Below, in pieces: positions 60,801 through 63,800 of a DNA stretch of 64,000 nt. The position numbers are program-made. The DNA is from Escherichia coli. Lineage in GTDB: Bacteria > Pseudomonadota > Gammaproteobacteria > Enterobacterales > Enterobacteriaceae. The stretch lies in the NCBI RefSeq assembly GCF_044647545.1, contig NZ_CP172818.1. One strand, 5' to 3'. Position 1 is the stretch's first letter. Each line of letters starts with the position of its first letter.

Positions 60801-63800
60801 GATTTTGTGATCATGGCGCGCACCGATGCTCTGGCGGTAGAGGGGCTGGATGCGGCGATCGAGCGTGCGCAGGCCTATGTTGAAGCGGGTGCCGAGATGT
60901 TGTTCCCGGAGGCGATTACCGAACTCGCCATGTACCGCCAGTTTGCCGATGCGGTGCAGGTGCCGATCCTCGCCAATATTACCGAATTTGGCGCAACACC
61001 GCTGTTTACTACCGATGAATTACGCAGTGCCCATGTTGCAATGGCGCTGTACCCGCTTTCAGCGTTTCGCGCCATGAACCGCGCCGCCGAACATGTCTAC
61101 AACGTCCTGCGTCAGGAAGGCACGCAGAAAAGCGTCATCGACACCATGCAAACCCGCAACGAGCTGTACGAAAGCATCAATTACTACCAGTACGAAGAGA
61201 AGCTCGACGACCTGTTTGCCCGTAGCCAGGCGAACCCCCCCCCCCCCCCCCACAACGAAAAATATCTCGACCCTACAAAAAAAAAAATGACGAGGACAAT
61301 ATGAGCGACACAACGATCCTGCAAAACAGTACCCATGTCATTAAACCGAAAAAATCGGTAGCACTTTCTGGCGTTCCGGCGGGCAATACGGCGCTCTGCA
61401 CCGTGGGTAAAAGTGGCAATGACTTGCATTACCGTGGTTACGATATTCTTGATCTGGCGGAACATTGCGAATTTGAAGAAGTGGCGCATCTGCTGATCCA
61501 CGGCAAACTGCCGACCCGTGACGAACTCGCCGCCTACAAAACGAAACTGAAAGCCCTGCGCGGTTTACCGGCTAACGTGCGTACCGTGCTGGAAGCCTTA
61601 CCGGCGGCGTCGCACCCGATGGATGTTATGCGCACCGGCGTTTCCGCGCTCGGCTGCACGCTGCCAGAAAAAGAGGGGCATACCGTCTCTGGCGCGCGGG
61701 ATATTGCCGACAAACTGCTGGCGTCACTTAGCTCGATTCTTCTCTACTGGTATCACTACAGCCACAACGGCGAACGCATTCAGCCGGAAACCGATGACGA
61801 CTCCATCGGCGGTCACTTCCTGCATCTGCTGCATGGCGAAAAGCCGTCGCAAAGCTGGGAAAAGGCGATGGAGATCCGCTGGTGCTGTACGCCGAACACG
61901 AGTTTAACGCCTCCACCTTTACCAGCCGGGTGATCCGGCGGGCACCGGCTCTGATATGTATTCCGCGATTATTGGCGCGATTGGTGCACTGCGCGGCTGA
62001 AGCACGGCGGGGCGAATGAAGTGTCGCTGGAGATCCAGCAACGCGACGAAACGCCGGACGAAGCCGAAGCCGATATCCGCAAGCGGGTGGAAAACAAAGA
62101 AGTGGTCATTGGTTTTGGTCATCCGGTTTATACCATCGCCGACCCGCGTCATCAGGTGATCAAACGTGTGGCGAAGCAGCTCTCGCAGAAGGCGGCTCGC
62201 TGAAGATGTACAACATCGCCGATCGCCTGGAAACGGTGATGTGGGAGAGCAAAAGATGTTCCCCAATCTCGACTGGTTCTCCGCTGTTTCCTACAACATC
62301 AGGGGCTTTCCCACCGAGACGTTCACCCCACTGTTTGTTATCGCCCGCGTCACCGGCTGGGCGGCGCACATTATCGAACAACGTCAGGACAACAAAATTA
62401 TCCGTCCTTCCGCCAATTATGTTGGACCGGAAGCACGCCCGTTTGTCGCGCTGGATAAGCGCCAGTAAACCTCTACGAATAACAATAAGGAAACGTACCC
62501 AATGTCAGCTCAAATCAACAACATCCGCCCGGAATTTGATCGTGAAATCGTTGATATCGTCGATTACGTCATGAACTACGAAATCAGCTCCAAAGCAGCC
62601 TACGACACCGCCCATTACTGCCTGCTCGACACGCTCGGCTGCGGTCTTGAAGCTCTCGAATACCCGGCCTGTAAAAAACTGCTGGGGCCAATTGTCCCCG
62701 GCACCGTCGTCCCCAACGGCGCGCGCGTCCCCGGAACTCAGTTCCAGCTCGACCCCGTCCAGGCGGCATTTAACATCGGCGCGATGATCCGCTGGCTCGA
62801 TTTCAACGATACCTGGCTGGCGGCGGAGTGGGGCCATCCTTCCGACAACCTCGGCGGCATTCTGGTACGGCGGACTGGCTTTCGCGCAACGCGGTCGCCA
62901 GCGGCAAAGCGCCGTTGACCATGAAACAGGTGCTGACCGCAATGATCAAAGCCCATGAAATTCAGGGCTGCATCGCGCTGGAAAACTCCTTTAACCGCGT
63001 CGGCCTCGACCACGTTCTGTTAGTGAAAGTGGCTTCCACCGCCGTGGTCGCCGAAATGCTCGGCCTGACCCGCGAGGAAATTCTCAACGCCGTTTCGCTG
63101 GCGTGGGTGGACGGTCAGCCGCTGCGCACCTATCGCCATGCGCCGTAACACCGGCACGCGTAAATCCTGGGCGGCGGGCGATGCCACTTCCCGCGCGGTA
63201 CGTCTGGCACTGACGGCGAAAACGGGCGAAATGGGTTACCCGTCAGCCCTGACTGCGCCGGTGTGGGGCTTCTACGACGTCTCCTTTAAAGGTGAGTCGT
63301 TCCGCTTCCAGCGCCCGTACGGTTCCTACGTTATGGAAAATGTGCTGTTCAAAATCTCCTTCCCGGCGGAGTTCCACTCCCAGACGGCAGTTGAAGCAGC
63401 GATGACGCTCTATGAACAGATGCAGGCAGCAGGCAAAACGGCGGCGGATATCGAAAAAGTGACCATTCGCACCCACGAAGCCTGTATTCGCATCATCGAC
63501 AAAAAAGGACCGCTCAATAACCCGGCAGACCGCGATCACTGCATTCAGTACATGGTGGCGATCCCGCTGCTGTTCGGGCGCTTAACGGCGGCAGATTACG
63601 AGGACAACGTTGCGCAAGATAAACGCATCGACGCCCTGCGCGAGAAGATCAATTGCTTTGAAGATCCGGCATTTACCGCTGACTACCACGACCCGGAAAA
63701 ACGCGCCATCGCCAATGCCATTACCCTTGAGTTCACCGACGGACGCGATTTGAAGAAGTGGTGGTGGAGTACCCCATTGGTCATGCTCGCCGCCGTCAGG

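Follow-up and report, generated by a model that had tools for sequence, protein, structure and literature searches.

The prpB-prpC junction of this Escherichia coli record contains two long single-base runs, one of 17 C's (C17) and one of 11 A's (A11), which are very probably errors of the record with no counterpart in the DNA of the organism. Most likely, the true sequence is a natural short prpB-prpC junction, at which prpB would stop normally. Both runs are private to the record and lie over a natural allele, and the noise of the record is patchy, clustered, coding-blind, and tied to a template. The window, meaning the whole stretch of 64,000 nt that was analyzed, spans argF, the CP4-6 prophage, pao, ecp, fdeC, rcl, ykgEFG, bet, yahA-N, and prpRBCD. 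It is best regarded as a chimeric, locally corrupted sequence, which matters for how the window is handled and not as biology.

The two runs and the natural spacer beneath them

In the record, the junction reads ...CCGTAGCCAGGCGAA-C17-ACAACGAAAAATATCTCGACCCTAC-A11-TGACGAGGACAATATGAGC... (Table 1). C17 and A11 occupy exactly the positions given for them in the initial annotation (61235-61251 and 61277-61287), and they are far beyond chance. Dinucleotide-preserving shuffles yield an expectation of 0.11 for C10 and 0.38 for A10 in the window, and natural E. coli DNA from the same chromosomal region (213 kb) has longest runs of 7 nt for C or G and 9 nt for A. The natural prpB stop is lost, as the same annotation had stated, with GCG AAA TAA AAC now reading GCGAA followed by C17. 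Natural PrpB has 296 residues and ends in ...ARSQAK; in the window, Lys296 is changed to Asn and followed by 22 spurious residues. The frame is open from 60348 until a TGA at 61302-61304. The proposed read-through of prpB is therefore real as a reading of the record, but it does not end just before the prpC start codon, since the TGA overlaps the ATG at 61301 (ATGA).

Table 1. Junction features, altered reading frames, and strain backgrounds in the window (positions count from the first nucleotide of the window).
Feature	Position	Strand	Remarks
C17 run	61235-61251	+	Replaces natural ATAAAAC (last base of Lys296, TAA stop, first 3 spacer nt)
Unchanged natural short-spacer stretch, 25 nt	61252-61276	+	ACAACGAAAAATATCTCGACCCTAC
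A11 run	61277-61287	+	AAA in the natural short allele; same site as the extra 9 nt (AAATGATAACAA) of long-spacer alleles
Unaltered spacer end, prpC ribosome-binding region and start codon	61288-61303	+	TGACGAGGACAATATG
prpB (methylisocitrate lyase) ORF as recorded	60348-61304	+	318 aa
prpC (2-methylcitrate synthase) ORF as recorded	61301-61933	+	210 aa; natural 389 aa
Zone 3, main body	61871-64000	.	~10 private indel events, ~20 private substitutions; prpC and prpD broken
Haplotype joint interval inside prpB	60861-60976	.	K-12-like upstream, short-spacer haplotype (L001) downstream
K-12-like strain background	1-13.37 kb		Identical but for two SNP clusters
Strain WP5-S18-ESBL-08 (NZ_AP022161)	13.37-24.35 kb		1 mismatch
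Strain WP5-S18-ESBL-08 (NZ_AP022161)	28.23-46.9 kb		3 mismatches
K-12-like	~46.93-60.94 kb		Errors at 47.0-57.3 kb, clean afterwards
Short-spacer haplotype of L001	60.98 to ~62.4 kb		Clean up to 61.87 kb but for C17 and A11
prpD, mixed haplotype	62.44-64 kb		Haplotype flips every few SNPs; errors present

The natural form of this junction is ...CAG GCG AAA TAA AACACAACGAAAAATATCTCGACCCTACAAATGACGAGGACAATATG, in which the prpB stop is followed by a 44-nt spacer free of REP units and then by prpC. The initial annotation had also described the intergenic sequence as missing. This does not hold, as 41-42 of the 44 nt of the natural short spacer are retained in colinear order, namely ACAACGAAAAATATCTCGACCCTAC, AAA, and TGACGAGGACAAT; what the window lacks relative to K-12 is the BIME/REP array, and the array-free form is itself a natural allele. 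Comparison with the reference 3' end of prpB thus bears out the loss of the stop and leaves the short spacer nearly intact. The annotation was probably based on a comparison with the K-12-type BIME allele.

Across 60900-61700 (801 bases), the best identity is 97.0% over a 783-base span, reached in 19 complete E. coli genomes. Direct alignment places the missing 3% in exactly the 24 columns of C17 and A11, and the segment is otherwise identical to these 19 genomes. Lys296 and the TAA of the natural short allele are not present in the window, being overwritten by C17, and their absence is interpreted as an error, not as another allele. The sites of the runs are the two positions where natural spacer alleles differ by indels, C17 falling at the site of the BIME array and A11 at that of the 9-nt indel. 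Each run returns to the natural sequence at a base common to both, C before ACAACG and A before TGACG. The true template under the runs would read ...GCGAAATAAAACACAACG... and ...CTACAAATGACG....

The spacer alleles were surveyed with a 191-nt query in 60 genomes, evenly spaced down the ranking of 5,219 matching records. The short spacer was found in 24 of the 60 as a single colinear piece, with inserts in the remaining genomes. Tract-length variation is absent among the short-spacer genomes sampled, all of which span 189-191 nt. The short spacer is a common natural allele, present in about 40% of the complete genomes of E. coli. In insert-carrying genomes, the query spans 302-679 nt, and the spacers measure 253-439 nt in the loci that were read (L003, L005, L007, and L008). 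No REP unit lies between prpB and prpC in the window, and the long alleles read show several repeat units.

The presence or absence of a BIME/REP array in the prpB-prpC spacer is a natural polymorphism; a 44-nt REP-free spacer is seen, for example, at 3340-3383 of locus L001. Short and long spacer alleles also differ by the 9-nt indel, which is located just before the ribosome-binding site of prpC. As a by-product of this analysis, the prpB-prpC spacer emerges as a clean case of natural BIME polymorphism, with no array in about 40% of genomes and varying inserts in the others.

Independent copies of the runs, which would speak against an artefact, were looked for and not found. Neither C17 nor A11 occurs in any of ~5,220 complete E. 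coli genomes; a genome with just one of the runs would score ~99% over 60900-61700, against the 97.0% seen at best. A search for the prpB 3' end followed by C6 in 241 million metagenome records returned one match, a chance C6 inside an unrelated gene, and the same search of species-representative genome contigs returned none. Among indexed public assemblies, there is no exact entry for the 318-aa read-through PrpB or the 210-aa truncated PrpC. At the junction, no Rfam match was obtained at E<=1 and no promoter-like or terminator-like site was found. The junction fold has a z-score of -0.35, and no significant structure involves the runs.

Private errors and strain backgrounds in the window

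Differences seen in no reference, termed private here, are concentrated in three zones. In zone 1 (25.77-28.22 kb), sporadic indels start in fdeC, the gene for an inverse autotransporter adhesin. The zone includes a tract made up only of A and C (26700-26915), with a C10 and an A10, and a block ~76% identical to fdeC, in which 2.3 kb are squeezed into 1.1 kb as five broken pieces. In a colinear copy of the 3' end of fdeC, the T's disappear and the sequence collapses into A27 (28121-28147) and a further A11 (28154-28164). A near-perfect match is back abruptly at 28225, to the same strain as before (NZ_AP022161), where the 1766 nt of the junk block correspond to 2985 nt. These C10, A10, A27, and A11 runs are the only other long runs in the window, and all lie within 26459-28225. 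The fdeC junk cannot be natural. Because the window returns exactly to the same real strain after it, the noise follows a real template. Dropout of sequencing channels was considered as a source of the A/C-only tract and rejected, as the recodings tried (G>A/T>C, G>C/T>A, and one other) scored no higher than shuffled controls. Under no two-letter recoding is the tract related to the real sequence.

Zone 2 (47.0-57.3 kb) holds ~48 small private indels and ~60 private substitutions, which break yahD, yahE, fdrA, yahG, yahI, yahJ, yahL, and yahM; its best match among 5,426 complete genomes is only 98.1%. C17 and A11 are the first private differences of zone 3 and follow a clean stretch of 3.9 kb. 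This stretch (57.3-61.23 kb), which covers yahN, yahO, prpR, and most of prpB, has 0 private events against 43 expected at the rate of the dirty zones. Beyond the runs, prpC is shortened by a private garbled patch with a 1-nt deletion at 61871-61877. Further garbled patches in zone 3 are found at 61935-61937 and 62300-62320, and two adjacent bases are swapped at 62434-62435.

The private substitutions are spread evenly over the three codon positions (26/23/29; chi-square p=0.71), and polymorphisms shared with at least one reference are distributed 68/35/494. Private events are clustered, with gaps of <=10 nt numbering 23 against 8.4 expected and 5 against 1.0 expected. Indels are about half to three-quarters as frequent as private substitutions. 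Most private errors are not homopolymer slips, and they have no association with homopolymers or with Dcm (CCWGG) sites. Judged by these patterns, the private differences are coding-blind, patchy noise that reflects neither selection nor slow neutral decay. Had the genes decayed, nearby intergenic and synonymous positions would have changed as well, and at least one relative would have the same changes.

Natural pseudogene decay was also considered for zones 2 and 3 (47-57 and 61.9-64 kb). It was rejected in view of the clustering, the high ratio of indels to substitutions, the lack of any private change in the adjacent 3.9 kb, and the fact that no relative shares the changes. GATC (Dam) sites account for 6 of 83 private events in 50000-57300 and 61300-63990, against a background of 2% (p=0.006, uncorrected for 12 tests). 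This borderline excess may hint at a methylation-sensitive long-read platform.

The window is in addition a patchwork of strain backgrounds (Table 1). Haplotype joints lie near 13370, at 46930-47040, and at 60861-60976, and their combination occurs in no complete genome. The first 25 kb reach at best 98.5% in any one genome, and their 13-kb and 11-kb parts each match some strain at ~100%. Similarly, the chimeric prpB allele is present in 0 of 5,219 genomes; the indel-free segment 60400-61234 matches at 98.7% at best, and each of its halves is found at ~100% somewhere. At 46.93-47.04 kb, the switch of haplotype and the first private deletions coincide within ~100 nt. This coincidence of a strain switch with the onset of errors at ~47.0 kb suggests a chimeric or mixed-strain assembly.

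Several other differences were observed in the first half of the window. One SNP cluster (1190-1930; 30 mismatches, no indels) covers an IS1 copy beside argF, within a first 14 kb that is otherwise identical to K-12. Another (13380-13772; 21 mismatches, no indels) is found in the interval from paoA to yagU, at the change from the K-12 background to one like WP5-S18-ESBL-08. Relative to NZ_AP022161, the window is without a 6.3-kb island between ykgR and fdeC at 24346 and without a 586-nt stretch upstream of rclC at 29162. The island of NZ_AP022161 encodes aldo/keto reductases, LysR regulators, a hydrolase, and a flavin oxidoreductase, and its absence is common to K-12-like strains. The differences at 24346 and 29162 look like natural structural differences because K-12-like strains share the first of these structures.

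Origin of the runs

The suspicion of an artefact, raised in the initial annotation, is borne out by the lack of either run in the ~5,220 complete genomes and of any genuine match in metagenomes or representative contigs, and by the low-complexity fdeC junk and clustered, coding-blind private errors held by the same record. A base-calling, consensus, or polishing step may have run on a single base, C and then A, before re-synchronizing with its template. The record looks like a consensus built on a real template, with local noise and with more than one strain background joined together. Candidate sources include a long-read patch that was left unpolished or came from a single read, run-on by a neural base-caller or polisher, and a mixed-strain assembly. 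The sites of the runs and their re-joining on matching bases would fit a mixed-strain or otherwise ambiguous alignment. Three observations run counter to an artefact. Apart from the runs, the 900 nt at 60.98-61.87 kb contain no error, although a stretch that is noisy in general would not usually be so clean; no clear technology signature marks the private errors; and the overwriting of 7 unrelated bases by C17 differs from a simple slippage miscall.

The initial annotation had further proposed a no-signal or low-quality artefact. The low-quality part of this proposal agrees with the evidence above, and the no-signal part leaves the A run and the perfect, continuous flanks unexplained. In its specific form, C17 would be the opposite-strand image of a poly-G no-signal tail of two-color Illumina chemistry (PMC13218037), kept from a contig end when two contigs were joined. 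The position of C17 at a structural difference between strains, with a BIME array or none, is where mixed-strain assemblies would break. Yet its flanks are colinear with one allele and only 7 nt are overwritten, unlike two independent contig ends, and the A11, A27, and A10 runs, the A/C-only tract, and the 76%-identical fdeC block would all need another cause. Many small indels are not typical of Illumina data, and the dirty zones are rich in them. A poly-G tail is accordingly given little chance.

Somewhat less improbable, though still unlikely, is a synthetic window, either the output of a generative DNA model or a real sequence that was deliberately corrupted, in which the runs would be typical run-on degeneration where training or natural alleles disagree. 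Several features point in this direction. The haplotype mosaic fits no single genome, and the prpD haplotype flips every few SNPs; base diversity is lost stepwise ahead of A27, first the T's and then into poly-A; both runs sit exactly at indel-polymorphic spacer sites and re-synchronize on the matching base; and the record's unique products are not in public assemblies. On the other hand, stretches of 11 kb and 19 kb differ from one real strain by 1 and 3 mismatches, respectively, and the match to it is restored exactly after 1.7 kb of junk. Free generation is disfavored because re-synchronization to the same strain requires a template, and a free-running generative model as the sole source was set aside as unlikely on the grounds of this exact return to one strain over 11-19 kb. 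The private substitutions are uniform over codon positions, although the errors of a trained model would be expected mainly at third positions, and the errors are clustered, in contrast to the uniform scatter of simple simulated corruption. If the window were synthetic, the homopolymers would still be no biological feature.

Least probable of all is that C17 and A11 are real hypermutable tracts, with PrpB extended by 22 residues, its reading frame ending on the prpC start (ATGA), and the broken prpC and prpD belonging to a decaying operon. The read-through frame is indeed open and overlaps prpC, and private substitutions that are uniform over codon positions would also fit neutral pseudogene decay. 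Against this, no relative has a tract at either site or any intermediate length, and in place of a short C run, the natural sequence has ATAAAAC. On/off tracts do not act at the 3' end of a gene. The neighboring 3.9 kb, including intergenic DNA and synonymous sites, has no private changes where 43 would be expected; indels are too frequent relative to substitutions, and too clustered, for slow neutral decay; and the fdeC junk is not natural. A slippage-controlled switch, by which a tail would be fused to PrpB and termination coupled to the prpC start, is just as improbable. If true, it would place a contingency locus within a core catabolic operon of E. coli, a species not known for long homopolymer switches.

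An error of the record thus remains the preferred explanation, and in the real organism, both the stop codon of prpB and the short natural spacer are almost certainly undamaged. The apparent prpB "fusion" and the broken prpC, prpD, yahD-yahM, and fdeC are not to be taken as pseudogenes or novel features. Any oddity within 25.8-28.2, 47.0-57.3, or 61.2-64.0 kb of the window should not be mined for biology.

Comparison with known alleles, contingency loci, and sequencing artefacts

The closest natural counterpart is the short allele of NZ_AP022261, NZ_AP022161, and strain W (NC_017635). The window shares with it the 3' codons of prpB (...CAG GCG AA), the ACAACGAAAAATATCTCGACCCTAC core, and the prpC ribosome-binding region and start. 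The two differ at the runs, with C17 in the window at the site of AAA TAA AAC in the allele, and A11 at the site of its AAA. With the K-12-type BIME/REP spacer, the window has in common the flanking genes and the last ~20 nt before prpC, and prpR and the 5' two-thirds of prpB in the window belong to the K-12-type haplotype. However, the K-12 type has GTG (Val) before the final Lys, whereas the window and the short allele have GCG (Ala), and it carries the TGATAACAA insertion, which is absent from the window.

The contingency loci of Neisseria, Haemophilus, Helicobacter, and Campylobacter resemble the junction in that long runs of C/G or A/T overlap with a reading frame. In general, prokaryotic genes contain fewer long poly(C)/poly(G) tracts than expected, and phase-variable tracts vary in length among relatives and are located at 5' ends or promoters (PMC2831843). 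In the window, C17 instead lies in the last codon and stop of prpB, at the 3' end, and A11 within the spacer, with 13 nt between it and the prpC ATG. No relative carries a tract of any length at these sites, where the natural bases are ATAAAAC and AAA.

Artefacts of base calling, consensus, or signal loss, such as the poly-G of two-color Illumina sequencing, differ from the junction in that the window has both C and A runs, which are internal, with perfect colinear flanks, and are not at the ends of reads or contigs. They resemble it in consisting of isolated single-base runs over real sequence, which appear in one record only and together with other low-quality sequence.
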